NCBI GenBank assembly: GCA_035352955.1
Contig: DAOPYQ010000003.1
Span: 76,901-140,900 of the forward strand
DNA length: 64,000 bases
Origin: Candidatus Omnitrophota bacterium
Lineage (GTDB): Bacteria > Omnitrophota > Omnitrophia > Omnitrophales > Aquincolibacteriaceae
Reading direction: 5' to 3'
Shown: piece after piece, positions 2,689 to 51,179 of the stretch
How positions within the stretch are numbered: the first letter of the stretch is position 1
Layout of the letters: each line of letters begins with the position of its first letter
Notes under the pieces: model-generated
Database searches by the model: none
The model's input: the letters and a program-made list of their open reading frames with translations, nothing else
What the model was told of the DNA's origin: nothing
Position numbers and translations under genes: made by a program

Positions 2689-2898
2689 AGGATCATTCCT
2701 CGACTTGTTGTATTCCGGAGAGACCGCCTTATAAAAATGCCACGGAAGAGTTCTTGGCACCGGATCCCATTCCGTGGCGGACCATGACGAAAACTGCTCC
2801 ATTATAAAAAATCCTCCTGGTGTGTCAATCGGTTTCTTCCCCCTAAGTGCCGAAATCTCCTGGCTTTACAACATTTTTCCTGCATGGTATGTTGGCGC

Positions 2899-19904: not shown

Positions 19905-20273
19905 TCATACGCTCTGGGAAAACTTGATCTGGAGTTGGCTAACGAGGGTTTCAAGCATTTTCTTTTCGTCGTCACTCAGGTTGCCCTGGGTCTTTTCACG
20001 AAGCGCAACCAGGATATCGATCGCTTCCTTCGCTCCTTCGGGATTGAGCTCGGTCTGCTGGGTCATGGGATTGGGAATGTCCCCGAGGTTCATCAGGGCC
20101 TGGTAGCCGAGGGACTGGACCAGGGAAAGAAAGGCCTTGGAAATCGAGGCCGGGGCTTTGGATTTCTCCGCGGGAGGGACAGGTGCGGCCTTAGCCTTGA
20201 CGTTTTCGACCTGCTCTTTCCAGCTGTCGTCGACCTTCTTTTCCGTAAACCGGATATCTTTATTCTTTTCCAT
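19905..20273 (-). CDS. DUF1844 family protein. The ORF extends to 20303.
   Basis: FLSLVQSLGYQALMNLG...IDILVALREKTQGNL matches the DUF1844 pattern as remembered from Pfam. This is from memory and was not searched. Confidence 0.6.
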   Translation of the reverse strand: MEKNKDIRFTEKKVDDSWKEQVENVKAKAAPVPPAEKSKAPASISKAFLSLVQSLGYQALMNLGDIPNPMTQQTELNPEGAKEAIDILVALREKTQGNLSDDEKKMLETLVSQLQIKFSQSV

Positions 20274-20452
20274 GACCCCTACGCTTCCGTTTGACCGGTC
20301 CAACCCCCTGGGTTAGACGACTCATTTCGCGCCATTGTAACCGATTTCCTATAAACCTTTCAACCTTTCACAACTTTTCCGTCTAAAACCCACTTCGGAG
20401 ACCCGGTCTCCGAGGCGGTGGGTACGCCGTTCGAAAAAAAACGCCCACGGAT

Positions 20453-20733: not shown

Positions 20734-23700
20734 TTAAGCGGCCGACGCGATCCTCTGGAACGCTTCGAACAGCACCTGCATGTTCTGCAGCATGCCATCG
20801 ATACTCTTCTTCGTGATCGCCAAACCCGAGGCGCCTTCTTTTTCAAAACCCGGCATTTTCAACAAAAGATCGGCCATCTGCTCCGGCGTCATTCCGCTCA
20901 GATTCCAGATCTTCTGGGCGCCGCGCATAGCCACACGACCCACCGCAGCCTGCGAAACGGCCCCCTGAACATTGTCCGCTTCGCGAACCACCACCCCGGT
21001 GACAAAGCTAAGATTCAGAAAGCTCAGAGCATTCGCCGTACCGGTCAAGACATACCCTTTCCCTTTAACCAGGGCCAGGAACTCCGCTGCCTTGGAATTA
21101 AAATCGTGCGCTTGAGGATCAAAAACCCTGATATCCACCTGGCTGATGAACGCCGGCCGGTGGATCTTATTGGCCCACGCCGCAAAATCCAGGAGAACCT
21201 GACGCACCGCGGCAGCATCGATCCCCGAGCCCAGCACCATCGTATCAAACCGCATATTGGGGTTCAGAAGCAGATTAAACTTCAAGAGAGCCAGAAACAC
21301 CTTCGGGTCCTTGAAGCCTTCGATCACTTTCACCAGACGGCCCGCATCCCCGCTGATCGGCAGAGGCATATTCGGCACCGCATTCTGCAACTGCTCCGTC
21401 AGACCCGTAATGGTCCGCTCATCGACAAGCAATGAGATCGCGATGATCACCGGCGCGAGAGCTTCCATATTGTCGCGTGCAATCCCCTCCGTCAGCGCCA
21501 CCGCCACCTTAAGCGCCGGCGTTTTGAGCTCAGATTCCGGGATCCCCATCGCCTTCAGCGCTTCCCGTGTCGTCTCCATCGCCGTCCGGACCTGCTGCTT
21601 TGTAAAATTCTGTTCGACCCACTTGGCTACGGCAAGCTGCCTTTCGGAAACAGAAACGTCCCGGCGTTCGGCGCGCCCGGCTTCGGCGGCCTTGACCTTT
21701 GCAGCCTCCTCGAGACGCTCAGCCTTAGCCTTCGCCGCGAGAGCGAGAGCGATCGCCCGCATCTCATCAAAAGTCGCGCCCCGGTCGATCGCCGTCTTGA
21801 TCGCCACACGCCCGGCGCCCTCAATTTCAGCCAGCGACACCACCGCCGAAAGCAAGAGAACCTCCCGCTCATCCGACGTGGTCGCCTTGTCCGTAATAAT
21901 GTCGCGAAGCGAACGGAAACCAACGATTTCCCGGCCCTCGGCATCGCGGGCGGGAGCATCAAAACTATTAAAGAAATCCGTGTACTTCTGATATCGAGTG
22001 TCCGTCTGTCCCAGAATGAGCCCGGCCGCATCGGGCTTGGCATCCGCGGGAATCTTCAACACGTTCCAGAAGGCGTGACTGACCTGGTGCTTGGATTTTG
22101 CAGCCGCATTCCACACCTTGAAGTCCGCGATGTTATTGTTGTCCTCAAGCGCCAGACCCGGCACCTCGCGGCTCAGAATCTCAAGAGCTTTGTCCGAGGT
22201 CATTTCCAATTTCCCGGCGCGCGGCGACAAAGCCGTACGAACGGACGGCGCTTCGATCCTAGTGACAGCCTCCTCGCTCAGAACCCACTCCTGGGGAAAC
22301 GTATTGATCCCGGAAGTCAATTTTGTGAGATCCAGATCCTTCGGGATCATGACATTCTGCGGCGCGATCCCCCGCACCAGGTGGCGGATGTAAAGATTTC
22401 CTTCAAACGCGAACACCGCAACCACAAAATTCGCATCCAGAACAAACTGCGGATCGTTCGAGCTGACCCGGATCTCCACTTTTTTCTTGTCACCGCTCAA
22501 GCGCACATTGATACGGCTCGGAACACCTTCCAGGTCCGTCCTCGCGGCATTCACGGAAGTTTCGAGAGCCGTCGCCTCCAGTACTTCGGACTGGATCGCC
22601 AACGCCTGCTCCTTCGTGTATGTTTTGAGGCTCCGGATAAGCTCCTGAAGCTCGGTTTTCGTAGCACCTTCGGGGAACCCATACGTTTCAACGATCGTCT
22701 CCAACGTCCGCACAAGCTCCGGCCTTGAATTTTTCATGAAATACGCATTCTCAAACGCACGCACTCTCAAACCCAAATTGGTATCTTGCGGCGTGAACGA
22801 CCGCTGTCTTATAATGGAAGTCAAACGGAAAGCCTCGTCCAATTCGTTCAACGTCATCTCCCGCTTCTCTGCGCGGAGGGTGGAAAGGGCCAGCGACGAA
22901 AACAACCGGAAAGCCTCGTCGGCGCGGGCCTGATCCTCCGGAGCAACGGTAAAGAGTTTCGTTTTGATCGATCTCAGGGTCATGGAGGTATCATCCCCAT
23001 CGTCGTACTTTTGTTTCGCCATCTGGATGATCCCGACGAGGTCCATCGTCGTGATCCCCCGAGCCACACTCTCAGCTTCCGTCAAAGCGCTCAGGATCTG
23101 CGGAGGATCGATCACCCTTGAAAGATCCGAAGCCGTCAAGATGGGCTCTTCCTGTCCGACAACCGTTGGCGTCCTCTGAGCCGCAGTAGAAACCCTGATC
23201 GCTGAAGCCAGCGGCGGCACATTCGCCGCCATGGGAACATCCCGCTTCTCACTGTTGGCGCGAAGTTCCTTCGAAACAGCGGCCTTCGCGGCTTCCGAGA
23301 ATTTCCCGGTAAAAAACGGATTCAATTCCGCGAAAGTATCGCGACTGACCGAGGGCCTCCGGGCCTTCCGGTACAATTGCCACGCGCCATAGATCGCCTT
23401 AACCAACGATTCGTTGCCGGTGGCACTCTGGGTAGCCGCCCAAAACGCGGCATCGATCTCTCTGTCCGTTAAAGTCCCCTGTTGAACAACCTGCAGCGCT
23501 GTCCAATTCACCGTGGGGTCACCCTCCTCCGTCAGACCACGCTTCTCCGCGCGGATTTCTTTGCGCGACGCGGCATCGAGCATGGGACGAAGCCCGTCCA
23601 AATAGTGTTTCACGGCCGCATTGTAGGCCTTGGCTTTGAAAACGCTTGTATTGGCATAAAGATCCTTAACCGTTTTAAGAGCATCCCGGTCCAGCGGCGT

Positions 23701-26700
23701 GTCCACCGGTGTCGCGCTATCAAGTCCGACGCCTCCGTTCCGTCCTTTCCCCAAATCCGCGGCCTCGCTCCGCACCGCAGCGCCGCCGGCGTTAAACCGG
23801 TAGAAAGAGATCAGATCATCGAACAGCGCCATCCATTTTTCGGCACGCACAGCCTGCGAATTCTTGGGATCCAAGGCTCCCGCAAGAAGATCTTCCAAAA
23901 CAACGTGCTTGCGCGCGCGAACGATCTTGACAAGATCCTCAACCGTTTTCGGGGCTTCGACCAGCGCCCCAGCCGTCACAACGGTCCCCGTGGGAGTCAC
24001 GACCATCCCGGCCGTCGCAGCAACCGGAACCGACGTCATGAGCAGACCCGCAGCCGCCAGTTCCTGGATTCCGAGCCGCTTTTCCGCCCGGGTGATGTCC
24101 ACGATCTCGTTAGAACCAAGTAAAACCACCATCACACGGCCTGTTACCTGCCGGACCTCGGTACTGTTCGCGTTCAAGCCGGGCATGTGCTCGTCCCAAA
24201 GTTGACGCAAGATCGGAAAGACAATCCGCGAATTGACCGCGTAGAAATCAAGCCCTTTGAATGCGCCGACACCTTTACGCGCAACGATGGCATTCGCAAG
24301 CGCTTCGATCAGCCGGTCCTGCTCATCAGCGGCAGTAGCCAGACGCAATCTCGTCGCTAAATCAATGACCTCGGGCGCTGTGCTTAAGAATTCTATAGCT
24401 TCCAGATTTATTCCCTTCACCTCCGAGCGGGCGGGAGGACGGACCCCGAGCCGCTTTTCCGCCCGGGTGATGTCCGCGATCTCGTTAGAACCAAGTTTGA
24501 TCCGGTGAGTCACGGGACTCATGGCCCGGTTAATGACGACCCTGTAGGAAACTCCCGTCTTCAATTGTCCTTTGAGGAGCTCCTGCCAACGGAAAGTCCG
24601 ATCATCGAAAACAATCGTCGGCCCATCCGTCGTAACATGCACCGTCATCCCGATCCCCTTTGACGCATTCTTTTCCAAACGTCCCGCCAGGAAAGGAACA
24701 ACCTGGTCGGCGGAAAGTACTTCAGTCGCCAACTGGCGCGCGGCAACGACAACGTCGCGATTAGCCTCAACATGGGCAGTCTCGATCTTCCGCGCCAGAT
24801 CCTCTTTCTGAAGATCGTCGTAGAATTCGGCTCCCAACACGCCCTGCGAAATCTCCGCCGCGGAATAGCCCTTCGAATCGGACTGTTTGATCAGCTCGAT
24901 CTGCGCCGCATTCAAGCCGAAACTCTCAAGGCCCTCGGCCAACCTCGCCATAAGCTCGAAATTAACACCTCGCAGCGTCAGCGCAAGCTGCAACGTCTCA
25001 CGCTGGATCGCCAACGCGAGCCGCTGTCTCGCGCTTTTGATCCGGCCTTTAACAAGATCCCGGTCGATCGACAGGAAATCCTCGGCAAGCTCCGCGGTGG
25101 ACGCACGGTCCAACTCACTGAGCCTCTTAAACTGCGGAACCGCGCCCGTCCAGAGACGCAGCTGCAATTCGATACGTTCGGGGCTGGTTGTGAGCCACCG
25201 TTTAAGAGACTCACTCTGCTTCGGAAAAAGCGTCACAAAAGATTCGGCCAGATCCCTGAAAAGTCCGGTAAAGAGCATCGCCAAAGGTAAAAACAAAGCG
25301 ATCCCCCCCACCGCCAACGCGTACACCGGGATCCCGAGAGATGCATTAGCGAACGCCACCGCCGCCGCCACAGACACTCCGGCACTCAGGGCGAGACTCC
25401 CCCCGCGGATAACCTGCATAGTCTTTTCAGAAAGCGGTGACACCGAAGGCTCTTCGAGGGAAGATTGGTAGACCGCTGACCAGACGAACTTGAGGACTGC
25501 GCGGATCACGGTCGTAGAACCGGCCGCGATCAGCAAAAACACTGCGATAGTCGGCAGAACCGCCAGCGTACCGACTGCTGCTGCCAATGCCTGCAGAAAG
25601 AAAAACGCCGGGATCAACGCCAGCATCCAGCTGGCCGTTTCCAGGCTTCCACGAATCCCGGCTTCCCTGTCCTCACGGGCCTGTTCGGCTTGCATCGCTA
25701 CGGACATCGCCGGATTGAGCGCCGCGTTTGCGAGATTCACCTGACGGCGTTCCGCGACACGCGCGGCTTCTCCCGAGACGTAATAAGAGATCTGGTCATA
25801 AATAACCGCAAGCGACGGGATCGCAAGTGTCGCCGCGACGATCAGGGGCATGATAAAAATCCCGGTCACCCCGGCCAACACTCCGCTGATGAACGGATAC
25901 ACAAGACCGGCGATCGACGTCGCTCCGGCGGCGATATTCGCGCCCAGGGACGTTCCGATCGTCATAAAATCCTTTTTCTCGCCGCGCTTTTCCGCGCGGA
26001 TAGAAAAAGCAAAAGCATTGAAAGCTCTTTCAGCGACCGCAACGGTGATCCTGCCATCATCATCCACCTGCGGGGCGAAAAGAAGCTCCCACAAACGCGT
26101 CAGATCCGGATTAGCAGACATCTTCGGGATTTTCCCTGTCGCCCGCACCATGACCCCCTGACGTTGATGATAAGCCTCCCAGGCCGCCTGGAGGACATTC
26201 CAAACATTTTTGTCGCGTTCCACCGCCTGAGTAAGAACAGCCCTATGAAAAGCCGACTCGATCTCCACCGGGGTCGGCTTAAAATCCATCCCCATCGGAT
26301 CCTTGGCATACGCCTCAACAACCCGGGCAAAGGTTTCTTCGAGAATAGCCGCGTCCTTGATCCTTTTAGGGTCAAAACACTGCGTCTTAAGCGTCGCCAG
26401 GTCCATGTTGGCGGGCGTTCCCAGGCGCTTTTGTTCCTCTAGCCATTTGGAGTACTGTCCCATGGCTGAATCAAGAGCATCCTGGATCTTAGAGATCTTT
26501 ATTTTCTCAGGGGACTCCTCGGCCGCGTTCCGGAACGATGAGCTTTCAATTTCGGCGGCCAATTGGACCCTTTCAAAAGCCCTCCGGATCTGGAAAGATT
26601 CCAGATCCGCCCGCAGGTCCGCGCCGCGTCTTTCCGAGCGCAGACTGGACACGAACAGATCATAGGCCTCATCCACATCCGCCTGCGTGATCCGGGGTTC

Positions 26701-29700
26701 CGCGGTTTTGGGTTGACGGCCCGTCTGTTCGGTAAAAAACGACTTCATGCCGGACAACGTTAAGGCGGCTATTTTCTTGTAAGCTTCCGCTTGTCCCCGG
26801 GCAAGTGTCACCTCTTTGTTGTAAGCCTCCCAAGCCTGTTCGAGAACATTCAACGCGGAACCCGTCGCAAGGGCTGACGCCCGGTTAAAAGCGAACCACG
26901 CCCGAAGACCATTCACCGGCGTTTGCGGATTTACTCCGGTCGTTTCTTCGGCGCGTTTTTCCTGGCGCGACGCAGGCAGGCTCAATGGCTTGAGGATCCA
27001 AAGAACGCCGGCCACAGTGATGGTCGCGTTGGAAGTCGCTGTGGTGGCCCGGAGAATTATCGGCGTTTTGCGGTGACGAACCTCCATAAGAACGGCGTTA
27101 ACGCCCTGGAATTCCTCGTCGGTTAAAAACCGTCCGAGGCTCCCGCCTTTTTTACCATCCTCATATTGAACCACCGGATATTTCGCAAGGACCGCTTCAA
27201 GACGGCTCTGTTCCGCAACATTGTTGGTTTGCTGGGCCTGCGTAAGGGCTTCGGCGATCTGACCGATCTGGACCCGGACCTGGTCGGCGTCGACCTGGAG
27301 GAACTTCGCAAGATCCGCGACCTGCTTCTCGGTAAATACTATCTTCTGCTCCCCGGCAAGCTGCGTCGCCCGTTTTTCTTGGCGTCCGGCAAGTGTCACC
27401 GGGACGGAAAAAAGCGGCCGTATCTCGATCGCATTGTCCTTCATACTCACCGAATATGTTTTTTCCATCGTCTCGGGAATCGAGTCGGGAAGATCCATCT
27501 GAAGCTTGAACTGCGCCAATTCCCCGAGATTTAAACTGTTTTTCGTCAACATCTGATCGTCCCCGGAATAGTTCCCCTCAAAAATGGGGTCTTTTCCGAC
27601 GAGATCGCTGTCCCCGAATCCGAAGATCCGGAGGGCCACGGAAGTCCTGCGGCCTTTATTTCCACGCGCGGTCAGCGTCCAAAGAGTATTCACCACGCGC
27701 GGAATGTTCTCCAATTGCGTTCCGCGGAGCTCCTTGCGGCCAGCGGCATTGAGAAACCCATTCGTCCCGCCAATGATCCCGGCAAAAAGTGTCGGAGAAT
27801 TGAGAAAAGCATTTGTCATGATCGTGTAGCTCGGCGTTTGGGGAGTCGCCTGAAAACCCCGGCTCACGACCGCCCAACCATTCGTATCGGTCAACCGATT
27901 GTTCGCGACAATATAAAAAACCATGTTGGTAATGTCCGAGGAAGTCCCCATCGTCCAACCCGCGAGAACCCCAGTGGGGGTTTTCTCAAGAAAATTCATG
28001 CGAGGAGAAGCCTCAGTGGTCTCGCCTTTACCAAACGAAACAAGTTGCGTCCCCACAGGCACTTCATTTGTTGTAAAAGCACCCGCCACACTCGCTATCG
28101 AGAGAGCAAAGATCAACCCAAGTGCGCGCCACATAGCCGGCAACATTTTCAAATTAACGGGCCCGCGTTCTGACGGCGTTCCGCGGAGCTCCTTGCGGCC
28201 AGCGGCATTGAGAAACCCATTCGTCCCGCCAATGATCCCGGCAAAAAGTGTCGGAGAATTGAGAAAAGCATTTGTCATGATCGTGTAGCTCGGCGTTTGG
28301 GGAGTCGCCTGAAAACCCCGGCTCACGACCGCCCAACCATTCGTATCGGTCAACCGATTGTTCGCGACAATATAAAAAACCATGTTGGTAATGTCCGAGG
28401 AAGTCCCCATCGTCCAACCCGCGAGAACCCCAGTGGGGGTTTTCTCAAGAAAATTCATGCGAGGAGAAGCCTCAGTGGTCTCGCCTTTACCAAACGAAAC
28501 AAGTTGCGTCCCCACAGGCACTTCATTCGTCGTGAAAGCTCTCGCCGAGAGCACTGCCCCAAACGCGAGAGACACGGCCAGCAAAATCGATTGTAATCCC
28601 CGGGAAATATAGATCGGCGATTTCACAACGGGCGCCGTTTCCTCAACGCCGAGGCCAAGCGCTGTAAAAAAGTTCATACCCAACCTGACCCCCAGCGCGC
28701 TAAGCGACCTCATCAGAGTGACATCCGTAAGCACCGGCATCACGGCCAAAAAGTCCCGGATCTCCTGCGTCAAACCCGGTTCGAGCGGACGTGTCGCGAT
28801 AATGTTATTCAACTCGGCAGCGATCTTTTCTTCCTTCTGGGCCCGCGTCATGCGCTTTTCCGCGCGGGTGTACGTGACCAGGATCGCCGGATTCCCAAAC
28901 CTGGAAGGACGGATTTGCACAACAAACGGCCCCTTACCGTTAACAGCCGCTAAAGCGTTCGTCAGGCTTTCCGGACCGGAATAATTGACCGGTTGCTCCG
29001 CCGTATCGCCGCCCATGATGAGAAAAACTCTTGCGGAAGGATTCAGTTCGACAAGACGGGCCACGGCTTCACGGACCCCGTCCAGATTGTCCACCTGCTT
29101 GGGTCCACGATAGTCCCGCCCGTCGATCACAGCGTCCACCTCGCCCCTCTTTTCCGCGCGGGGAGTACCCACGTCCCGATCGTCTTGAATCACGCCACCC
29201 GCAACCGGACCCATTTTTAGTAGATTCATATCCCCCGTAGGAATTTCCGGGGATTTCATCCGCGTGGCGGGTCCGTCCGGAAAGATACTTTTGGAAAGAC
29301 TCGCTCTCTCGTTCCTGTTGCGGATCCAGCGGGCGGCCGAAACCGCTCCGGCGACAACCCCCACGCCAAGGATCACGGCGAGAGACACGCCGGTCGTAAG
29401 AAAAGCCAGTCCTGCCGCCGCCAACGCGATCGCGACGCCGCCGAGAACAATGCTGTCTTTCCAGGCAGGCTGAAAATAAACCATCGAAATTTTGGAGAAA
29501 TCGAACTTCCCCGACGTGAGATCAGGGATCTTCCACTCGGCCAGCATTCTCTTGGCCAGTGTTTCCCTTTCATTAATACTAAAAAGCCTGTCTTGTAGCA
29601 AATGGTGTGCGAAGTTCGTCCTCTCGTCCTGCAGCAGCCACGGACTTTGGGCGGTCTGGGGAAGCTCCCGCTTTTGGTCCTCAGACTTCCCGCCGTTAAT

Positions 29701-31788
29701 GGCAAGAAGCCGCATAAGCTCGTTAACTTTCTCGGGAGTGTAGATCGCGTTAAGCTTTTCGATCGCAGCCTGGCGGACCGCCGGATCCTCACTTCCCAGA
29801 TCCCTTAGCGATGCCGCGGCAATTTCATTTCCCTTGTCCAAGGTCGGCGCAAGCATCTCAGGCAAAATCTGCCCCATTTGAACGGCAATCGTGTCGTCGA
29901 CTATGGCAGTCGCACCGTCGATCCCGACCTGGTCGGGACTGACCTTGCGAAGAACGCGGTACGTTTCACCGCCCTCTTTCGCTTGGACGAGCCGCAACTC
30001 ATTGCGACGAGCCATGGGCCCGTCATTCACGTCAGGAAGGATCCCGGCAGGTGTTGGGACTTCTGCCACTTTGGTTGCGGTCGCAAGTAATTTGCCCAGG
30101 ACCCCCAGTTCCCCAACACCCTGCGCATCCTGGCCGACAGGTCCTTTGAGCGGCTGAGCGAGAAGGGTTTTTTCGACAAAAGACAGCTCGAAATTCTGCT
30201 TTCCGTCCTGGAGCATGGTGGAGCGGTAAAGTCTCTCGTCGGATTTTTCACTAAGGCGCGGGGTGACGATCCCATAGCTCACGGAATTTTCGCGGAAAAG
30301 GTCGCTCATGCCGTCCGTGTGAAAACCGCCCGTGATAAGGACGGCCTTCGTGATCTTGCGCTGGCTCATGGCGTTCTGCATTTCTTTATAGAAGACGCCT
30401 TCACGCTGACGGGCGAAACCGTAGAACTCAAGGCCGGTCTTGAACAGCTCGGTCATCTTTCCGCTAAAAGCCTTGGGCATGACCTCCTGGTCTTTGCGGA
30501 CCGAGGTATCCCCCGCGGCAATGATCGCGGTCTTCAGGCGTTCGACAAGGTTCGTCACGGTCACACGATCCCCGGCATCGACCAGCTCGCGCCACTGCGT
30601 GCGGCTCAACTCCAGATGCAAAAGCTTACGCAAAAGCTCACCGTCCCTGTAAAGGGCAAGGAGGGCCTTCTGCTGAGGCTCCTTGGCTAAGGCATCGAGC
30701 ATCTGCGTAAAAAGGTATTCAATCTCCGCGAACAGGACCTTGGGGTCAAGTTCGGCCCGGAGCGTCACGTAACCGGCAAAAAGGCTGAACGCAGGATAAT
30801 CGCTGAATTTGAATCCTTTGGGGGCGACTTCAGCGGCAAGGCGCTCGAGCACGTCGCGCGGAGAAACTTCCTGCGCGGATTTTCCGACGGAGATGCTCCC
30901 TTCATTGAAACTTTCAAGCGCGGCAAGAAGTTCTTTCGAGACGCCCTTCGTTTTGAGCATTTTGAGAAGCGCGGCCTTTTCTTCGAGTCCCTTGGCTTTG
31001 TCCAGGGACTTTTCCATTTCCTGGATGGCCAGAAGGCGCGTGATCTGCGGCCAGCCGGCCTGGGCGAAAAGGCTGTTAAGATCGACATCGAGGATTCTCC
31101 TGGACTGTTTGGCGAGCTGCTGAACGAAAGGCATGAATTCGCGGCGGCCCAGCTCGAAACGTTTCCAGTCGGCGATCAGGGCGCGCGTCTCGGGCGTAAA
31201 GACCTTGGAGGCGGCCCGGTCGAGCTTCTGATCAAATCCCTGAAAGAAACGGTTGACGTCGGGTTCGGCGCCGAACACTTTCTTCAGCGCTTCGTAGTTG
31301 GCCTTGTAAAGAGGCGCCTGCTCGATGCCGAGTGCTTCGACGTTCTTCTCGTTCTCCATCAGGAACAGTTCGGAACCGGTCAGCTCGCCCTGCTTGGCGA
31401 GTTCGTCGCACAGTTTAAGATTGCGTTCTTCATCGGGAAAAAGGCGGAGATAATCCGCATCGAGTTTGGTCGAGGCCCCTTCCACAAAAATGGTCGTGAA
31501 TCCGTATTTCTTGTTCATGTGCTCCAGAAGTTGCTTGATCTTCATCTGGGCTTGATAATTGGCGTGCGCGTTCTGGATATGAAGGATGAATTGCGGTGCA
31601 GTAGATGCGGGCGCTTCGTAAAGAGCATCGACGGTGCCGAGATCCACGGGAACATCAATGCTTAAATAAGTGGGCAGTTCTCTCTTGGACGCAATTTCGA
31701 TATTAGCACCGGGGGCCCCCCATGCGATCTGTGTCGTGAGAAAGCAAACCACGGTCGCCGCCGCGATCACCTTCAGGCCCTTTTTCAT
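20734..31788 (-). CDS. Giant 3684-aa secreted/membrane protein of unknown function, with an N-terminal TraB/GumN/Tiki-like domain
   Basis: Uninterrupted 11,055-nt ORF with a signal peptide MKKGLKVIAAATVVCFLTTQIAWGAPG. The N-terminal roughly 530 aa carry TraB/GumN-family motifs: HIQNAH, FVEGAS, and GGFHTDG...YGIV. A central cluster of 6 or more TM helices maps to about 25250..26000. The sequence also has a recurring RAEKR motif and an internal perfect tandem duplication. Confidence 0.8.
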   Translation of the reverse strand: MKKGLKVIAAATVVCFLTTQIAWGAPGANIEIASKRELPTYLSIDVPVDLGTVDALYEAPASTAPQFILHIQNAHANYQAQMKIKQLLEHMNKKYGFTTIFVEGASTKLDADYLRLFPDEERNLKLCDELAKQGELTGSELFLMENEKNVEALGIEQAPLYKANYEALKKVFGAEPDVNRFFQGFDQKLDRAASKVFTPETRALIADWKRFELGRREFMPFVQQLAKQSRRILDVDLNSLFAQAGWPQITRLLAIQEMEKSLDKAKGLEEKAALLKMLKTKGVSKELLAALESFNEGSISVGKSAQEVSPRDVLERLAAEVAPKGFKFSDYPAFSLFAGYVTLRAELDPKVLFAEIEYLFTQMLDALAKEPQQKALLALYRDGELLRKLLHLELSRTQWRELVDAGDRVTVTNLVERLKTAIIAAGDTSVRKDQEVMPKAFSGKMTELFKTGLEFYGFARQREGVFYKEMQNAMSQRKITKAVLITGGFHTDGMSDLFRENSVSYGIVTPRLSEKSDERLYRSTMLQDGKQNFELSFVEKTLLAQPLKGPVGQDAQGVGELGVLGKLLATATKVAEVPTPAGILPDVNDGPMARRNELRLVQAKEGGETYRVLRKVSPDQVGIDGATAIVDDTIAVQMGQILPEMLAPTLDKGNEIAAASLRDLGSEDPAVRQAAIEKLNAIYTPEKVNELMRLLAINGGKSEDQKRELPQTAQSPWLLQDERTNFAHHLLQDRLFSINERETLAKRMLAEWKIPDLTSGKFDFSKISMVYFQPAWKDSIVLGGVAIALAAAGLAFLTTGVSLAVILGVGVVAGAVSAARWIRNRNERASLSKSIFPDGPATRMKSPEIPTGDMNLLKMGPVAGGVIQDDRDVGTPRAEKRGEVDAVIDGRDYRGPKQVDNLDGVREAVARLVELNPSARVFLIMGGDTAEQPVNYSGPESLTNALAAVNGKGPFVVQIRPSRFGNPAILVTYTRAEKRMTRAQKEEKIAAELNNIIATRPLEPGLTQEIRDFLAVMPVLTDVTLMRSLSALGVRLGMNFFTALGLGVEETAPVVKSPIYISRGLQSILLAVSLAFGAVLSARAFTTNEVPVGTQLVSFGKGETTEASPRMNFLEKTPTGVLAGWTMGTSSDITNMVFYIVANNRLTDTNGWAVVSRGFQATPQTPSYTIMTNAFLNSPTLFAGIIGGTNGFLNAAGRKELRGTPSERGPVNLKMLPAMWRALGLIFALSIASVAGAFTTNEVPVGTQLVSFGKGETTEASPRMNFLEKTPTGVLAGWTMGTSSDITNMVFYIVANNRLTDTNGWAVVSRGFQATPQTPSYTIMTNAFLNSPTLFAGIIGGTNGFLNAAGRKELRGTQLENIPRVVNTLWTLTARGNKGRRTSVALRIFGFGDSDLVGKDPIFEGNYSGDDQMLTKNSLNLGELAQFKLQMDLPDSIPETMEKTYSVSMKDNAIEIRPLFSVPVTLAGRQEKRATQLAGEQKIVFTEKQVADLAKFLQVDADQVRVQIGQIAEALTQAQQTNNVAEQSRLEAVLAKYPVVQYEDGKKGGSLGRFLTDEEFQGVNAVLMEVRHRKTPIILRATTATSNATITVAGVLWILKPLSLPASRQEKRAEETTGVNPQTPVNGLRAWFAFNRASALATGSALNVLEQAWEAYNKEVTLARGQAEAYKKIAALTLSGMKSFFTEQTGRQPKTAEPRITQADVDEAYDLFVSSLRSERRGADLRADLESFQIRRAFERVQLAAEIESSSFRNAAEESPEKIKISKIQDALDSAMGQYSKWLEEQKRLGTPANMDLATLKTQCFDPKRIKDAAILEETFARVVEAYAKDPMGMDFKPTPVEIESAFHRAVLTQAVERDKNVWNVLQAAWEAYHQRQGVMVRATGKIPKMSANPDLTRLWELLFAPQVDDDGRITVAVAERAFNAFAFSIRAEKRGEKKDFMTIGTSLGANIAAGATSIAGLVYPFISGVLAGVTGIFIMPLIVAATLAIPSLAVIYDQISYYVSGEAARVAERRQVNLANAALNPAMSVAMQAEQAREDREAGIRGSLETASWMLALIPAFFFLQALAAAVGTLAVLPTIAVFLLIAAGSTTVIRAVLKFVWSAVYQSSLEEPSVSPLSEKTMQVIRGGSLALSAGVSVAAAVAFANASLGIPVYALAVGGIALFLPLAMLFTGLFRDLAESFVTLFPKQSESLKRWLTTSPERIELQLRLWTGAVPQFKRLSELDRASTAELAEDFLSIDRDLVKGRIKSARQRLALAIQRETLQLALTLRGVNFELMARLAEGLESFGLNAAQIELIKQSDSKGYSAAEISQGVLGAEFYDDLQKEDLARKIETAHVEANRDVVVAARQLATEVLSADQVVPFLAGRLEKNASKGIGMTVHVTTDGPTIVFDDRTFRWQELLKGQLKTGVSYRVVINRAMSPVTHRIKLGSNEIADITRAEKRLGVRPPARSEVKGINLEAIEFLSTAPEVIDLATRLRLATAADEQDRLIEALANAIVARKGVGAFKGLDFYAVNSRIVFPILRQLWDEHMPGLNANSTEVRQVTGRVMVVLLGSNEIVDITRAEKRLGIQELAAAGLLMTSVPVAATAGMVVTPTGTVVTAGALVEAPKTVEDLVKIVRARKHVVLEDLLAGALDPKNSQAVRAEKWMALFDDLISFYRFNAGGAAVRSEAADLGKGRNGGVGLDSATPVDTPLDRDALKTVKDLYANTSVFKAKAYNAAVKHYLDGLRPMLDAASRKEIRAEKRGLTEEGDPTVNWTALQVVQQGTLTDREIDAAFWAATQSATGNESLVKAIYGAWQLYRKARRPSVSRDTFAELNPFFTGKFSEAAKAAVSKELRANSEKRDVPMAANVPPLASAIRVSTAAQRTPTVVGQEEPILTASDLSRVIDPPQILSALTEAESVARGITTMDLVGIIQMAKQKYDDGDDTSMTLRSIKTKLFTVAPEDQARADEAFRLFSSLALSTLRAEKREMTLNELDEAFRLTSIIRQRSFTPQDTNLGLRVRAFENAYFMKNSRPELVRTLETIVETYGFPEGATKTELQELIRSLKTYTKEQALAIQSEVLEATALETSVNAARTDLEGVPSRINVRLSGDKKKVEIRVSSNDPQFVLDANFVVAVFAFEGNLYIRHLVRGIAPQNVMIPKDLDLTKLTSGINTFPQEWVLSEEAVTRIEAPSVRTALSPRAGKLEMTSDKALEILSREVPGLALEDNNNIADFKVWNAAAKSKHQVSHAFWNVLKIPADAKPDAAGLILGQTDTRYQKYTDFFNSFDAPARDAEGREIVGFRSLRDIITDKATTSDEREVLLLSAVVSLAEIEGAGRVAIKTAIDRGATFDEMRAIALALAAKAKAERLEEAAKVKAAEAGRAERRDVSVSERQLAVAKWVEQNFTKQQVRTAMETTREALKAMGIPESELKTPALKVAVALTEGIARDNMEALAPVIIAISLLVDERTITGLTEQLQNAVPNMPLPISGDAGRLVKVIEGFKDPKVFLALLKFNLLLNPNMRFDTMVLGSGIDAAAVRQVLLDFAAWANKIHRPAFISQVDIRVFDPQAHDFNSKAAEFLALVKGKGYVLTGTANALSFLNLSFVTGVVVREADNVQGAVSQAAVGRVAMRGAQKIWNLSGMTPEQMADLLLKMPGFEKEGASGLAITKKSIDGMLQNMQVLFEAFQRIASAA
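27717..28527. repeat. Perfect in-frame tandem duplication inside the giant gene (period 459 bp = 153 codons)
   Basis: 27717..28068 is 100% identical to 28176..28527 (352 bp). Both copies encode AFTTNEVPVGTQLVSFGKGETTEASPRMNFLEK...NAAGRKELRGT. Each copy is preceded by a diverged hydrophobic segment. Confidence 0.85.
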
Positions 31789-31960
31789 GTTTTGTATCCT
31801 CCTCGGATCAGATTATGAACCCTTTTTAAAAGATTAAAAAACATAAAGAAAATGTAACATATCACGGCCAGTTTGCAAGCCTAAAAATCCCCTCAAGAGG
31901 ACTTTTTTAAGATTTATTGTAAGTCTAACCGAATCAACCATTTGCACAGTTTTTCTCCGC

Positions 31961-32689
31961 TTAAATGGTTACGAATTCAACGCCAAAACCAAGTTGCTCC
32001 TTGCGAACTTCCTCTCGACGGATCTTCCCGGCAACCTGGTACTCCTCCGGAAAATTGGCACTTGGGAAGATATGAATGTCGACCTTGAGTCCCGCAAGGG
32101 GCCCAAGAGCCGAGATCCGATGCGCCGCACCAAGGTCCAAATACTCCGCAAACAGCCCTCCTTCGCTGATATTGGTCGCGATGGCGCGCGTTTGGAGAAC
32201 CTCCCCCTTCGGGCTTGTGATCGTGAGCTTCAGCGGGATCGCCACATGCATACGATGACTGCGGCGCTTTTCGAGCTGGTGCCCCGGCGAATCCTGCGGG
32301 TTTTTTACCCCCGGCGCCATGATGCGCTTTTCCGCGTCCTTGTCAAAAAGGAACGGCCCGAAACTTTCCGCCACTTCCTTTTCGTCCGCGCACACGTCGA
32401 CCTTCCCGGTAAAGCAATTATCCTCGAGATAATGGGCCATCTCCGCGGAGGCCCCATAGATCACACTGTGCTTGGGGCGGATGCAGACCGTCAGCAGCCT
32501 TCGCAGACCGATCGCGTCAAGCGCTCCGGCCTCCTGGAAATTCAAAATGATCCTCTGCAGACGGTGGCGCCGAATGTTCTTCTGGATCTTCCAGGCAACC
32601 TCCTGCACGGATTCAAAGGTCGGCTCTCCTTTCAAGTCAAAGACAGCGACCCCTCCGATCTCTCTGGTGGAATAGTGGAATTTGCTCAT
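31961..32689 (-). CDS. STAS (anti-sigma-antagonist-like) + PilZ (c-di-GMP-binding) fusion protein
   Basis: N-terminal STAS-like region VAVFDLKGE...ILNFQEAGALDAIGLRRLL. The SpoIIAA phospho-serine position holds Ala, so it is not phosphorylatable. C-terminal PilZ motifs RRSHR (RxxxR) and NISEGG (D/NxSxxG). Confidence 0.7.
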   Translation of the reverse strand: MSKFHYSTREIGGVAVFDLKGEPTFESVQEVAWKIQKNIRRHRLQRIILNFQEAGALDAIGLRRLLTVCIRPKHSVIYGASAEMAHYLEDNCFTGKVDVCADEKEVAESFGPFLFDKDAEKRIMAPGVKNPQDSPGHQLEKRRSHRMHVAIPLKLTITSPKGEVLQTRAIATNISEGGLFAEYLDLGAAHRISALGPLAGLKVDIHIFPSANFPEEYQVAGKIRREEVRKEQLGFGVEFVTI

Positions 32690-32924
32690 GACAGATTTTT
32701 CCTCTTTTTACTGCGTTCGATCCTTCTGAGGTTCCTGTGAAGTCTCGGGTACATATAACCCGATAACAAATCACCCCGCAAGATCACACAAGGAACGTGA
32801 GGACCTCCTTTCCCATTCATCATTCTCAAGCCTTTCATCACGCTCAAATCATGCGTCATTTTCCGTATCTCCCTTTTTCAAGATTATCAGTCGTTTTACT
32901 ATGCTTTTTTTCACTTCTACATGA

Positions 32925-32953
32925 AACATAACTCAATACAATACTTTTGTCAA
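32925..32953 (-). promoter_or_regulatory. Possible sigma70 promoter (TTGACA-N17-TATGTT) inside the AT-rich island, upstream of the STAS-PilZ and giant genes
   Basis: Hexamers were read from the sequence. It would give an unusually long 5' leader of about 230 nt. Confidence 0.25.
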
Positions 32954-43250: not shown

Positions 43251-43713
43251 AAAGATCGAGTTTGCGGGTCGTCTGGTCTTTAAGATTCGTGACAATGACC
43301 GAATCGGGAGCGATCGAAGTGACTTCATAATCCCCGATCCGGCCCTTGGGCTCGATCATCTGTCCGTTGAGGATCGCAAACGGCTGCGTGGGATTGTAAA
43401 TAATCCCTTCGAGAACGATCCCCGCCACGACGGGAGCTGCCGGGGGCGTAACGACATGGGACACCGCAACCGAAGGTTTCGGAATCCGGACCGGACGATT
43501 CCCGGCAAGGCTCGCCTCCCCCTTCACGATAAAAACATAAGCCCCGGCCGCCACAAAAATACCCCCCATAAAAAGAAAAACGATAAGTCTCCAGTTGTTT
43601 TTTTTCCGGACAACTTCGATTTTCGGCATCGAAACGTCCCGCACCGGAACGACCGGCGCTTCGGATTCCTTCGTCGCCTGGATCTGTTTCAGGTAATCAT
43701 AAACAATGCTCAT
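43249..43713 (-). CDS. GspB/ExeB-like bitopic membrane protein. The ORF extends to 43800; the likely start MSIVYD at 43713 forms an ATGA overlap with exeA-like.
   Basis: Single TM helix LIVFLFMGGIFVAAGAYVFIV and a periplasmic C-domain. It sits downstream of the ExeA-like ATPase gene, as in exeAB/mshMN loci. Confidence 0.45.
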   Translation of the reverse strand: MSIVYDYLKQIQATKESEAPVVPVRDVSMPKIEVVRKKNNWRLIVFLFMGGIFVAAGAYVFIVKGEASLAGNRPVRIPKPSVAVSHVVTPPAAPVVAGIVLEGIIYNPTQPFAILNGQMIEPKGRIGDYEVTSIAPDSVIVTNLKDQTTRKLDL

Positions 43714-44516
43714 TGGATCTCTTCCATCGAAGCGAGCAGGATATCCTGGTCGAGCACCTTCTGTTTTCGGACGAATCCGAGCAACAGCGCGCGATCGCAA
43801 AGAAGATTGATCAGACGCGGAACACCTTTCGAAAAGTCGTTGATCACCTGGTACGCCTCCGGCGTCACCATGACTCCTTCCGCCCCCGATCGGGAAAGGC
43901 GGAAATCCACGTAGGCCTTTACATCGCCGGAGTCGAGCGGCTGAAGGTCATATTTGATCACGACGCGCTGATAGATCTGACGGAGGTCATAACGGCGAAG
44001 GTTGGCCTTGAGCTCCGGCTGCCCCACCAGAACGATCTGGAGCAACTTGCCGTGCTTCGTCTCGAGATTCGACAAAAGGCGTATCTGCTCGAGCTGGCGC
44101 GGCTTCAGGTTCTGTGCCTCATCGATCACGAGCACCGCGTTCCCCTGCTGCAGGCTCAGATCGATCAAGAATGCATCGAGTTTTTTTACAATATCAAGGC
44201 GGGTCTTTTTCTCGGCTTCAAGCCCGAAATCCTCAACGATCGCCTGCAAAAGCTGGATATCGCTGAAGTAAGGGCTCAGGATCAGCGAGGTCCGGACGGT
44301 CTTGGGAAGGCGTTCCATAAGCGCTTTGCAAAGCGTGGTTTTCCCCGTCCCGACTTCCCCGGTGATCAAAAGAAGTCCCTTACGTTCTTCGATCCCGTAC
44401 ATCAGGGACCCGAGGGCTTCCTGATGGGAACGGCTTTCAAAAAAGAGATCGGCGTCGGTCGTGATGTGAAAAGGCTGGGTCTTGAATCCGTAAAACTCGC
44501 AAAGGGCCGTGGTCAT
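43710..44516 (-). CDS. ExeA/GspA/MshM-like AAA ATPase
   Basis: Walker A GEVGTGKTTL, Walker B VLVIDEAQNL. ATGA overlap with pilQ. Confidence 0.8.
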   Translation of the reverse strand: MTTALCEFYGFKTQPFHITTDADLFFESRSHQEALGSLMYGIEERKGLLLITGEVGTGKTTLCKALMERLPKTVRTSLILSPYFSDIQLLQAIVEDFGLEAEKKTRLDIVKKLDAFLIDLSLQQGNAVLVIDEAQNLKPRQLEQIRLLSNLETKHGKLLQIVLVGQPELKANLRRYDLRQIYQRVVIKYDLQPLDSGDVKAYVDFRLSRSGAEGVMVTPEAYQVINDFSKGVPRLINLLCDRALLLGFVRKQKVLDQDILLASMEEIQ

Positions 44517-46069
44517 ATGCCTTGCATTTTTTGATCGATCTTGGTCCGGTCCAGAACATCCGCCGGAAGCACGGTCGAAGGTTTCACGATCTTCACCGTC
44601 AGAAAAATAACGAGATCCGTTTTCAACCCGTTATTGGTGTTCCGGTCGAAGATCTTCCCCAAAAGGGGTATCTTACTCAAATAAGGGACTCCCCCGACCT
44701 CGGTCGTCTTCGCATCGCTCAGAAGCCCGCCCATCACCGCCGTATCCCCATCATCAACGACCATTTGCGTCTCGGCCTCACGGGTATCGATGATCGGATA
44801 GGAGGCGATCGTCGCCGTGCCCAGCGTTCCGCCTTTAACGTCCACCGTGCCATTTTGATTGGAAACCGTCGGATGCACGATCAGATTGACCTTGTCCTCA
44901 TTGTCGCCGACGATCTGGGGAACCACCTTGAGCTGAATGCCGATATTCTGATAATACGAAAGCGAGCCACCGACCGTGTTGTTGACATTCGTGCTCGACG
45001 TAGTCTCCAGGATCGGGTACTGCTTACCAACCAGGATCGTCGCCTCGCGCCCATCCATCGTCAAAACGGTCGGCGTAGACAACGTGTTGGTATTTTCATC
45101 CTGTTGAAGCGCGTGCAAAACCATTTGAAATTTCGTCCCATTCACCTTGGCGAGATTGAATTCAAGACCTGAATTCGCGGCAGTCGTCCCGGTCTCCATG
45201 GGAACAAAAGCATCCGGAGTGACAGACGTCGGAAAACGACTCCCGAGCCCCGCGGTAAAATCCTTGTTGAAGATTGAGGCGCTCCCGGGCGTTTCCGTCG
45301 GCGTCCCGAAGTTGATCCCGAGATCAAAAAGCTTCTGCGCCGTCACTTCCAGAATGACTCCCCGGATCAGGACCTGTTTCGGCGCAACATCCATTTCGAC
45401 GATAAGCTTCGCGATCTGACGGACCACGGTCGGTGTATCGGAGACCGCCAGGATCTTTGTGCGGGTCATTTTTGTCGTGTTGGCCGGCGCCGTCGGCGGC
45501 GTATAAGTGCTGCTGCCGGAAGAACTGTCCGGGACACTCATCAAACCGCTCGTCGACGCGGAAAACCCCCAGCCTTGCTTGTTCACGACATCAAGCACCG
45601 AAACCTTGCCGTCCTTGGTCAAGAACGGCTGGATCATTTTTGCGACATCCGCGGCCTCGATATGCGTCAGTTTGAAAGCCTCGATCTTCATGCCGCCGGA
45701 GGCGAACAACGCATCATCCTCTTTTTTCTGGTCTTCCTGCAGTTTCGTGAGAGTCGAAACGGTCAGGATACCCCCGTCCTGGGTATAACCGAGATCGTAC
45801 ATCTTGAGAATGATCTTGAGCGCGGTCTTCCAGTCCACATTCTCGAGATCCACCGTCACGAGCCCGAACACTTCAGGCGTCGTCACGATATCGATCTTCT
45901 TCCCCTCCTGCTCGGCCTTCTTCTCGATGGCCTTGAGAACGGTCGCGATATCCGTATCCTTGAACTTAAGGCTTCCCAACTCGGCCGCAAAGGCCGCGGA
46001 CGTCGCGGCGCACAGAACCAACGCTGCGATCACGATGATGGTTCGGACCTTCATGATTCCTCCGTTCAC
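44513..46069 (-). CDS. pilQ: Type IV pilus secretin
   Basis: Signal peptide, N0/N1 domains, and the C-terminal secretin domain (VVDDGDTAVMGGLL...GVPYLSKIPLLGKIF). Confidence 0.88.
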   Translation of the reverse strand: MNGGIMKVRTIIVIAALVLCAATSAAFAAELGSLKFKDTDIATVLKAIEKKAEQEGKKIDIVTTPEVFGLVTVDLENVDWKTALKIILKMYDLGYTQDGGILTVSTLTKLQEDQKKEDDALFASGGMKIEAFKLTHIEAADVAKMIQPFLTKDGKVSVLDVVNKQGWGFSASTSGLMSVPDSSSGSSTYTPPTAPANTTKMTRTKILAVSDTPTVVRQIAKLIVEMDVAPKQVLIRGVILEVTAQKLFDLGINFGTPTETPGSASIFNKDFTAGLGSRFPTSVTPDAFVPMETGTTAANSGLEFNLAKVNGTKFQMVLHALQQDENTNTLSTPTVLTMDGREATILVGKQYPILETTSSTNVNNTVGGSLSYYQNIGIQLKVVPQIVGDNEDKVNLIVHPTVSNQNGTVDVKGGTLGTATIASYPIIDTREAETQMVVDDGDTAVMGGLLSDAKTTEVGGVPYLSKIPLLGKIFDRNTNNGLKTDLVIFLTVKIVKPSTVLPADVLDRTKIDQKMQGI

Positions 46070-46074
46070 TCTGC

Positions 46075-46554
46075 CTATTTCAGATGAAGTTCAAATTCCG
46101 ATGTTTTATCTTTAAGTTTCACACTATCGGGCTGTATCTTGACTACCTGAAACCCGTTCAGGGTGTCCCCTTCTTTCAGAAAAGTCTGATTAATGACCGC
46201 CGTGGGGATCTTGTCACCCCACAGGATGCCTTCCAGAACCAGCATGCTCCGGGGATCTCTCGGGCCGATCTGTCCCCCCACGAACGGATCACGCTCAACG
46301 GAAAGCGCGTCCGTCACTCCGTTAAATCTCCCAAAAAAACTATCGTCCAAAACCGGCTTTCTCTTGACCAGAGAAGGAACAGAAACGGTCCCACCCTGAA
46401 ATGAGACGGATGCGGCAACGTTCGGAGCCGGGAGCGGCAAAACCCGCTTCGCAGCGTTGATCTTTTTGACAAGAGAACCCGTCGCCGACACCAAGAGAAG
46501 TGCCGTGACGACCACGACCCCGAGTTCAATGATCTCTTTTTTTCTCATGGTCAC
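46075..46554 (-). CDS. pilP: PilP-like pilus assembly protein
   Basis: Size, N-terminal membrane/lipo-anchor, and its position between pilO and pilQ. Confidence 0.6.
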   Translation of the reverse strand: MTMRKKEIIELGVVVVTALLLVSATGSLVKKINAAKRVLPLPAPNVAASVSFQGGTVSVPSLVKRKPVLDDSFFGRFNGVTDALSVERDPFVGGQIGPRDPRSMLVLEGILWGDKIPTAVINQTFLKEGDTLNGFQVVKIQPDSVKLKDKTSEFELHLK

Positions 46555-47138
46555 TCCAAAAAAAACAGGCTGAGTTCAAGGACGGCCGAAAGAGGCGGCG
46601 AATCCGCGGACCGTCTAACGACATCCAGACGTTCCACCGCCATGTACGCCGGCAAGATTTTTCGCAAAGCCTCGATATACCGGATCAGGTTCAGGTACTC
46701 GCATTTCACGGTCATGGTAACCAGCTGAACCTTCGCGGGCTTCCCGTCCACGCGCAGGACCTCGCCGCGGCTGTCTCTGAAATTCCCGGCAGGCTTCGTC
46801 GTAATTTTGTCCACCTTGATCTGGAATTTGTAGGCGTATTCCGTAAGCATCAAAAGAGACTTCGCCTCCTCGGCCGGAAATCTCCGCAAAAGCTCCTGGC
46901 GGATTTTCATGAAATAGGCGGCCGCCTGGTCCGGATTCTTCTGTTCCCGGATCACTTGTCCGACCCATTTAAGCTGTTCCTCGACCAAATGATATTTTCT
47001 CCGAAGAGAGATCAGTCGCTCGTCCGTCTTCCAATCGACGAACACCTGGAAGGCCAGGGCCAGAGCCAGGACGGCGAGGCTGCCGGCAAAGATAGCGACT
47101 TGCGACGCTGATATTTTAGGCTTTCCGACTTCAATCAT
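46551..47138 (-). CDS. pilO: PilO-like pilus assembly protein. The ORF extends to 47246 and the start is uncertain (M18, M20 or M37).
   Basis: Single TM helix, then a coiled-coil and the PilO periplasmic fold pattern. ATGA overlap with pilP. Confidence 0.6.
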   Translation of the reverse strand: MIEVGKPKISASQVAIFAGSLAVLALALAFQVFVDWKTDERLISLRRKYHLVEEQLKWVGQVIREQKNPDQAAAYFMKIRQELLRRFPAEEAKSLLMLTEYAYKFQIKVDKITTKPAGNFRDSRGEVLRVDGKPAKVQLVTMTVKCEYLNLIRYIEALRKILPAYMAVERLDVVRRSADSPPLSAVLELSLFFLE

Positions 47139-48702: not shown

Positions 48703-48719
48703 GAACCGCCTTCGTTCGC

Positions 48720-49642: not shown

Positions 49643-49657
49643 TTTTCGCTTCCCACC

Positions 49658-50686: not shown

Positions 50687-50762
50687 TGGAACCCCCGCGA
50701 AAGGAGCGTGAGCGGCAGCCGCTTTGGCCGCCGCTCACGCATTACGAAAAAAAAGGCGACAA

Positions 50763-51131: not shown

Positions 51132-51179
51132 TTTCGTTCTCCTTTCGCTGAACTGCTGCACTCAATTAACAACTTTAGA

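Follow-up and report, generated by a model that had tools for sequence, protein, structure and literature searches.

We analyzed a gene on the minus strand of a 64-kb stretch of Candidatus Omnitrophota DNA (contig DAOPYQ010000003.1, positions 76,901 to 140,900; the whole stretch is hereafter called the window). Its product joins an N-terminal STAS domain to a C-terminal PilZ domain with intact motifs for binding cyclic di-GMP (c-di-GMP). The gene lies between a small conserved open reading frame (ORF), which it overlaps, and a giant ORF read in the same direction (Table 1). The original prediction, made from the sequence alone, had described this STAS-PilZ gene as a possible c-di-GMP input to partner switching or to control of the giant protein. 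An identical protein from an Omnitrophota metagenome-assembled genome (MAG) carries the database label 'PilZ domain-containing protein'. Full-text literature searches returned no description of a STAS-PilZ fusion, and STAS is not among the fusion partners listed in a survey of PilZ proteins (10.1101/814665).

Domains, fold and key residues of the STAS-PilZ protein

Both halves of the protein were recognized by Pfam. The PilZ model (PF07238) matched amino acids (aa) 140-241 with 28.9 bits against a cut-off of 22.5 (E 1.5e-6), and the STAS model (PF01740) matched aa 7-89 with 23.7 bits against a cut-off of 22.6 (E 4.2e-5), a marginal pass. Among 29 diverse members of the family, PilZ was matched in 27 and STAS in 21 (E<=0.01); the NCBIfam models ant_ant_sig and spore_II_AA scored far under their cut-offs. 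The AlphaFold2 model of the protein (predicted local distance difference test, pLDDT, 81.8; predicted template modelling score, pTM, 0.77) has an N-terminal domain with the order beta-beta-alpha-beta-alpha-beta-alpha-beta-alpha of a STAS fold. A disordered linker of low pLDDT, which holds the RxxxR motif and fits an unliganded state, is followed by the six-stranded beta-barrel of a PilZ domain (strands at aa 151-239, pLDDT ~80-90); the domains on either side of the linker are predicted with confidence. Using Foldseek, the STAS part was matched to SpoIIAA (1til_B, template modelling score 0.77 on the target) and also to RsbS, RsbV and RsfB, with scores of 0.72-0.78 on the target for SpoIIAA chains and 4hyl; the YchM STAS-ACP structure 3ny7 was matched as well. 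For the PilZ part, the matches were PilZ domains of BcsA, VCA0042 and MrkH, with 2rde and 5kec among them. The division into STAS and PilZ halves made by the original prediction was recovered both by profile and by fold and, as judged from sequence models and predicted structure, the protein is a genuine fusion of a STAS domain with an intact, putatively c-di-GMP-binding PilZ domain.

The two PilZ motifs that the original prediction had called canonical, RRSHR and NISEGG, correspond to RxxxR and to [D/N]hSxxG, the latter as refined in 10.1101/814665. R142, R143, R146, N173, I174, G177 and G178 were invariant in 29 members (55-79% identity), and S175 was conserved in at least 90% of them. By profile, by both motifs and by its predicted barrel, the protein is a member of the PilZ family. 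It resembles YcgR, PlzD/VCA0042 and MrkH in its C-terminal canonical PilZ domain, its length of ~240 aa and the position of RxxxR in the inter-domain linker, which matches the layout and behaviour described for two-domain (xPilZ-PilZ) receptors (10.1101/814665). Unlike in YcgR and PlzD, the N-terminal domain is an alpha/beta STAS domain rather than a PilZ-derived barrel (PilZN, PilZNR or PilZN2), so the protein is not a member of that group.

On the STAS side, A59 of the DAIGL segment stands opposite Ser58 of Bacillus subtilis SpoIIAA in both a profile alignment (with 1auz) and a MAFFT alignment, as the original prediction had read it. The phosphorylatable Ser or Thr expected of a STAS domain at the start of helix alpha-2 is thus replaced by Ala in this protein. 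Across orthologues, the equivalent position holds A, E, T, D, P, H or Q, rarely S and never a conserved Ser; therefore, the family as a whole does not have a regulatory serine. Many orthologues carry Glu or Asp at this position in the MAFFT alignment, which are phosphate mimics. Ser was found there only in the second STAS-PilZ copy (paralogue B, below) of two distant lineages, L061 and L062.

Table 1. Positions of the STAS-PilZ gene, its neighbours and the motifs and segments of the giant proteins
Feature	Position	Strand	Description
STAS-PilZ gene (subfamily 'A')	31961..32689	minus	ORF with ATG start, 242 aa; Pfam, AlphaFold2, Foldseek, homologues
STAS domain	aa 1-112		AlphaFold2 model
Flexible linker	about aa 114-147		AlphaFold2 model
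PilZ barrel	aa 148-240		AlphaFold2 model
DAIGL (within LDAIGL)	aa 58-62, 32504..32518	minus	A59 at SpoIIAA Ser58 position
RRSHR, PilZ RxxxR motif	aa 142-146, 32252..32266	minus	N-terminal edge of PilZ, inter-domain linker
NISEGG, PilZ [D/N]hSxxG motif	aa 173-178, 32156..32173	minus	Sequence and family alignment
Conserved small ORF	32686..32859	minus	57 aa, isoelectric point (pI) 11.3; ORF, synteny, substitution pattern
Sigma-70-type promoter-like site TTGACA-17-TATGTT	32925..32953	minus	Upstream of small ORF; pattern scan
Spacer between STAS-PilZ gene and giant ORF	31789..31960		172 nucleotides (nt)
Promoter-like element of the giant spacer, TTGCAA-16-(TGT)TACATT	31851..31878	minus	Extended -10 type; sequence
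Giant ORF	20734..31788	minus	3684 aa; ORF; frequent, non-obligatory neighbour of STAS-PilZ
N-terminal module of the giant	aa 1-620, 29929..31788	minus	Invariant H75, Q81 and E103-G104
Motif codons of the giant	29146-29160, 28852-28866, 27370-27384, 26953-26967, 26626-26640, 25984-25998, 24451-24465, 24076-24090, 23539-23553, 22861-22875, 21661-21675	minus	R[AQS]E[KR]R
DUF1844 gene	19905..20303	minus	Pfam DUF1844, 82.9 bits; adjoins STAS-PilZ in giant-less genomes
Motif-bearing giants	L001, L002, L005-L009, L012, L015-L017, L019, L023, L052, L056, L069
Inter-motif segment with receiver module	L001		141 aa
Inter-motif segment with sigma factor module	L069		298 aa (787-1084)
Inter-motif segment with PP2C module	L052		383 aa; HATPase segment of this giant, aa 1568-1878
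Duplication within the giant	27718..28080 and 28177..28539	minus	aa 1084-1204 and aa 1237-1357
Type II secretion/type IV pilus-like locus	43710..54064	minus	Secretin, 44513..46069; T2SSE ATPase with MshEN domain, 52394..54064
rpoN (sigma-54)	2884..4335	plus	All three Pfam domains

Family spread, gene order and the upstream unit

We retrieved 284 homologues of ~240-250 aa, and all those with an organism name were from Omnitrophota. When 1.84 billion cluster representatives were searched with the family profile, just 75 matched at E<=0.001; when ten of the more distant matches were looked up, the one with an organism name was again from Omnitrophota. The STAS-PilZ family is confined to this phylum. 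Gene order was compared in 57 loci, one genome per species, all from Omnitrophota or MAGs. As observed in all 57, the gene keeps its place in the order pheS-pheT-rarA-[STAS-PilZ]-DUF1844-LPG_synthase_TM (flippase-like)-aroQ-accB-accC, and this order holds down to 50% identity of the receptor. In lineages where pheT was 44-57% and rarA 45-73% identical, the receptor was 50-60% identical. Its degree of conservation is similar to that of pheT and rarA and exceeds that of DUF1844 and the flippase-like gene, which marks it as slowly evolving and suggests a core function.

The neighbours in this block raise one alternative, in which the STAS-PilZ protein would regulate the adjacent DUF1844, LPG_synthase_TM and accB/accC genes in the manner of transporter-controlling STAS domains (SulP STAS-ACP, MlaB-MlaF). 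We give it little credence. DUF1844 and LPG_synthase_TM do follow the receptor in all giant-less loci, with a median gap of 173 nt between STAS-PilZ and DUF1844, and YchM STAS-ACP is among the fold matches, but synteny is just as strict across all nine genes of the block, pheST and rarA among them, so the adjacency is not specific. In addition, the gaps are wide enough for separate promoters, and the insertion of giant genes between STAS-PilZ and DUF1844 has disrupted neither of them.

Upstream of the STAS-PilZ gene, the TGA stop of the small ORF overlaps the receptor ATG by 4 nt (ATGA), and the two genes are probably translationally coupled. In 36 of the 57 species loci, the small ORF occupies this same position, and it was not found elsewhere in them. 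Its substitution pattern indicates that it is under purifying selection, with 1200 synonymous against 511 non-synonymous substitutions in frame and ratios of 150:1560 and 87:1591 in the other frames. We found 90 homologues of 50-79 aa; those with names are called 'hypothetical protein', and the organisms named are Omnitrophota. A Pfam scan of this small family matched no member at the cut-off, and one relative gave a weak, ribbon-helix-helix-like match to Antitox_RHH (E 0.005, under the Pfam cut-off) covering a strand and one helix. The protein ends in an RKRK tail. Ahead of the small ORF, the promoter-like site TTGACA-17-TATGTT is followed by an AGGAG ribosome-binding site (RBS). In an alignment of nine loci, TTGACA was invariant and the -10 region nearly so, and the surrounding flanks were unalignable. 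Because promoter and RBS are conserved in an otherwise unalignable spacer, we read the promoter, the small ORF and the receptor as one expressed unit. The STAS-PilZ protein is a new domain architecture made of two known signalling modules, well conserved and encoded in a small conserved operon.

A paralogue of the receptor, which we call B, shares 23-30% identity with it and retains both PilZ motifs; at least 16 loci have it as a tandem copy on the upstream side, in the order B-(small ORF)-A. This conservation bears on the view that the PilZ domain is a structural remnant that does not bind c-di-GMP, the protein being merely a divergent STAS protein. PilZ domains unable to bind c-di-GMP do exist (10.1101/814665), and no diguanylate cyclase was found in the window, of which our Pfam scans covered the ~50 longest plausible ORFs. 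We regard this view as very improbable: both motifs are intact, invariant family-wide and kept even in the distant paralogue, and GGDEF domains have been reported in Omnitrophota giants (West-Roberts et al., 2023; 10.1101/2023.11.21.568195).

In L061 and L062, rarA and the tandem STAS-PilZ genes are separated by a gene for a sigma-54 activator (L061:2988-3977 and L062:1410-2411; 329 and 333 aa), composed of AAA+ plus helix-turn-helix domains with no regulatory N-terminal domain. Neither the other 57 loci nor the window showed such a gene. We note it as a lead, which hints at a link of STAS-PilZ to sigma-54-dependent transcription. A CT398-like coiled-coil/zinc-ribbon gene (L062:6690-7412) follows the A-like STAS-PilZ copy of L062.

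The giant ORF and its relation to the STAS-PilZ gene

The distance of 172 nt to the giant ORF on the same strand, given by the original prediction, proved exact. Among relatives, the downstream state could be assessed in 54 of the 57 species loci, the other 3 not being assessable. We observed a very large ORF directly downstream (~100-300 nt) in 21 loci, DUF1844 alone with no large ORF in 32, and an unrelated 809-aa ORF in one. The N-terminal module known from the window's giant is present in 20 of these 21 large ORFs. Most members of the clade to which the window belongs have a giant next to the receptor, and this arrangement recurs in the distant clade of L052 and on metagenome contigs L064-L073, L066 and L068, with a gap of only ~30 nt. 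The pair of genes, whose synteny had been left for comparison with relatives, is conserved in a part of them: 20 further species loci have it with a homologous giant, and the 32 with DUF1844 alone do not. Because these giants all share the N-terminal module, the sequence comparison indicates that the pairing is ancient or recurrent and has been lost many times. The link of the STAS-PilZ gene to the giant is facultative, and the gene predates the pairing and has a wider distribution. An association of this kind has been published for the phylum: small pilZ homologues lie downstream of Omnitrophota giants of at least 10,000 aa (West-Roberts et al., 2023). Both cases involve a PilZ gene beside a giant ORF, but here the gene encodes a STAS-PilZ fusion, lies upstream of an ORF of 3.7-7 kaa and is also found without a giant neighbour. 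The pilZ-giant association is thus already known in a different arrangement, and the STAS-PilZ architecture is new.

The spacer between the two genes contains the element TTGCAA-16-TGTTACATT, conserved in 11 loci of the clade, where its consensus is CTTGAA..TGTGTTACAT. A weak hairpin with a T-run (~31883..31908), read by eye and not caught by the pattern scan, precedes this element. In this clade, the giant probably has a promoter of its own and is transcribed independently. A further conserved element, TTTTAAAAAG (~31805..31850, minus strand), lies between the promoter-like site and the RBS of the giant in 11 loci. The coupled 57-aa ORF with its conserved promoter, the tandem paralogue B and this separate promoter of the giant had all been missed by the original prediction.

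With conserved promoter elements on both sides of the gene, the protein might instead be a MrkH-like c-di-GMP-dependent DNA-binding regulator, acting alone or with the 57-aa protein, for example at the spacer promoter. MrkH is among the fold matches, helix alpha-1 of the STAS domain carries invariant K34, R40 and R41 within a near-invariant IRRHRLQR, the small protein is strongly basic and has its RKRK tail, and one protein of its family shows the weak Antitox_RHH match. Nevertheless, we consider this explanation unlikely. No DNA-binding domain was detected in scans of the STAS-PilZ protein or of the small ORF, the RHH-like match spans just a strand and one helix, and the gene also persists in genomes in which the giant or the small ORF is missing. 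In addition, the STAS fold is not known to bind DNA.

The giant protein has a signal-like N-terminus, a conserved N-terminal module of 560-620 aa, variable cargo and several transmembrane-like segments. A Pfam scan of the window's giant gave no domain match at all, and phmmer searches with the sigma, HATPase and PP2C modules of the L069 and L052 giants found none of them in it, even at E<10. In homologous giants, Pfam identified Sigma70 regions 2 and 4 (L069), HATPase_c with a weaker HATPase_c_2 match together with PP2C (L052), receiver domains (L001 and L008) and a methyltransferase (L002); for a homologue of 7044 aa, the precomputed Pfam matches include HATPase_c and HPr. By their profiles, these modules are cytoplasmic-type regulators and enzymes, not adhesin repeats. 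Such a mosaic of regulatory and enzymatic domains has already been described in Omnitrophota giants (10.64898/2026.06.07.730766).

A short motif punctuates these proteins. R[AQS]E[KR]R occurs 11 times in the window's giant, and RAEKR exactly occurs 7 times against 0.0035 expected. We counted 3-13 copies of R[SA]ExR per protein in 15 homologous giants, where 0.1-0.24 would be expected. Each lineage has its characteristic fourth residue, and the first motif always lies past the conserved N-terminal module. Since the motif codons vary synonymously, the constraint acts on the protein. Each Pfam domain found in the giants falls within one inter-motif segment, the segments have the size of free-standing proteins (three are given in Table 1), and in L052 a motif stands 7 residues ahead of the PP2C domain. 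The giants thereby look like polyproteins in which R[SA]ExR marks candidate processing sites. Cleavage of Omnitrophota giants has been suspected, with sites not known (West-Roberts et al., 2023), and the motif is mentioned neither there nor in 10.64898/2026.06.07.730766.

The N-terminal module is common to all homologous giants and to a separate Omnitrophota family of ~1000-1080-aa proteins, one of which is labelled a partial methyltransferase; a protein search with the giant's N-terminus returned just these ~1000-aa relatives. In addition to the invariant residues listed in Table 1, GGFH at 487-490 is near-invariant. The AlphaFold2 model of the module, although confident (pLDDT 83.7), gave no significant Foldseek match in the Protein Data Bank (PDB). 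A likeness to EreC (erythromycin esterase) or BcR135 was weak (E 0.5-1.5) and unproven. Further along, the giant contains a near-exact duplication (360/363 nt identical) encoding 121 identical residues, which is either a recent event or an assembly artefact.

The original prediction had placed the giant under dedicated control by the STAS-PilZ protein, at the level of expression, export or display, with LapD/LapA as a model. We find this quite unlikely, even though the two genes lie 172 nt apart on one strand, a homologous giant follows the receptor in the 20 other species loci and several metagenome lineages, and PilZ genes beside giants have been noted before (West-Roberts et al., 2023). The STAS-PilZ gene persists without a giant in 32 of the 54 assessable loci, and the giant has its own conserved promoter in the window's clade. 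With the Lap system itself, just the abstract idea of c-di-GMP governing a very large protein is shared: the receptor is a soluble STAS-PilZ protein and not an inner-membrane protein with degenerate GGDEF-EAL domains, and our Pfam scans of the window detected no LapD-like GGDEF-EAL receptor, LapG-type protease, type I secretion genes or RTX adhesin. No adhesin or RTX domain was seen in the giant either, and the modules of its homologues (receiver, sigma, HATPase, PP2C and methyltransferase) are cytoplasmic.

Elsewhere in the window, a type II secretion/type IV pilus-like locus contains genes for an AAA_22 ATPase, a secretin, a PilM-like protein, a pseudopilin with an N-methylation motif, a Laminin_G_3 protein, T2SSF and a T2SSE ATPase. 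In the N-terminus of the latter, the RLGxx c-di-GMP motif was not obvious by eye. The whole locus agrees with the secretion locus that was reported to lie upstream of Omnitrophota giants (West-Roberts et al., 2023). The rpoN gene lies on the strand opposite to most window genes and overlaps a minus-strand ORF of 398 aa with no Pfam match, which is probably spurious. A scan for the sigma-54 promoter TGGCAC-N5-TTGCW gave 21 sites against 20.6 expected, none of them near the STAS-PilZ gene or the giant. Scanned with Rfam over its full length, the window gave three tRNAs only and no c-di-GMP riboswitch.

Possible c-di-GMP gating and candidate partners

Because an intact PilZ domain is fused to a STAS domain lacking the serine-phosphorylation switch, a STAS output gated by c-di-GMP is the natural reading. 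We therefore favour, with moderate confidence, a cytoplasmic c-di-GMP receptor specific to Omnitrophota, encoded in a two-gene unit, whose STAS output lacks the regulatory serine and is gated by c-di-GMP. The conserved promoter would give a two-gene transcript, from which the very basic 57-aa protein would be made first and then the receptor. c-di-GMP would bind the RxxxR arginines of the linker and the NxSxxG face of the PilZ barrel and, by analogy with two-domain PilZ proteins of the YcgR/PlzD/MrkH type, could re-orient the STAS domain relative to PilZ. This movement may expose or hide a STAS surface for a partner protein, so that c-di-GMP would play the role that serine phosphorylation has in SpoIIAA/RsbV partner switching.

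Three candidate partners can be ranked by support. The small basic protein, co-translated with the receptor, has the best positional support; the tandem paralogue B comes second, where present; and third are kinase-like or sigma-like modules that might be released from the polyprotein-like giant, an ancestral or recurrent downstream neighbour. The likeness to SpoIIAA/RsbV lies in the shared fold, in the STAS model that passes its Pfam cut-off, and in some relatives that encode sigma, HATPase_c and PP2C modules directly downstream. Unlike SpoIIAA/RsbV, the STAS-PilZ protein is fused to PilZ and lacks a Ser that could be phosphorylated; the residue is Ala in this protein and varies or is acidic among its relatives. 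RsiG, a helical anti-sigma factor that binds c-di-GMP directly, contains neither PilZ nor STAS and is unrelated to the STAS-PilZ protein by sequence as well as by fold. The concept that c-di-GMP feeds into sigma/anti-sigma binding (PMC13232838) is nevertheless shared with the Streptomyces RsiG-sigma WhiG pair.

Several observations weigh against the receptor model and its partners. The STAS score barely clears its Pfam cut-off and, when the family profile was searched against the PDB, the best solved STAS structure was SpoIIAA at E 0.3, which is not significant and leaves a negligible likeness in sequence. An RsbW/SpoIIAB-like kinase, the expected counterpart for which a search had been proposed, was not found by Pfam within the 64-kb window; no PP2C, GGDEF, EAL or HD-GYP domain was found there either, and no separate RsbW- or RsbU-type gene lies nearby. 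The window's giant has no detectable kinase, sigma, HATPase or phosphatase module. Synteny with housekeeping genes carries little functional information. Finally, in at least nine loci the receptor has neither the small ORF nor paralogue B nor a giant beside it, so no single proposed partner is universal.

The proposal of a c-di-GMP input to partner switching is thus supported in part, by the intact fusion and by the sigma, HATPase_c and PP2C modules of the L069 and L052 giants, but such modules were found neither in the window nor in its own giant. The support that these modules of related giants lend to partner switching is real but indirect, and the idea is plausible for the STAS-PilZ protein. 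A bolder version, in which this protein would be a c-di-GMP-operated antagonist and the sigma factor, RsbW-like ATPase, PP2C and receiver would all be modules of a giant polyprotein cut at R[SA]ExR, seems to us tentative and on the whole improbable. If it were true, a second messenger would decide which polyprotein-derived regulators act, and the basic 57-aa protein made along with the receptor would add another new part to the circuit.

Bacterial signalling has two textbook devices in PilZ receptors and STAS partner switching. The loss of the STAS serine together with the invariance of the PilZ motifs suggests that a STAS antagonist can be switched by a nucleotide ligand instead of by phosphorylation. 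Omnitrophota are uncultured, ultra-small and possibly predatory bacteria; the STAS-PilZ gene belongs to the small number of conserved regulatory genes with a physical link to their enigmatic giant genes, and the R[SA]ExR punctuation offers concrete candidate cleavage points in these giants.

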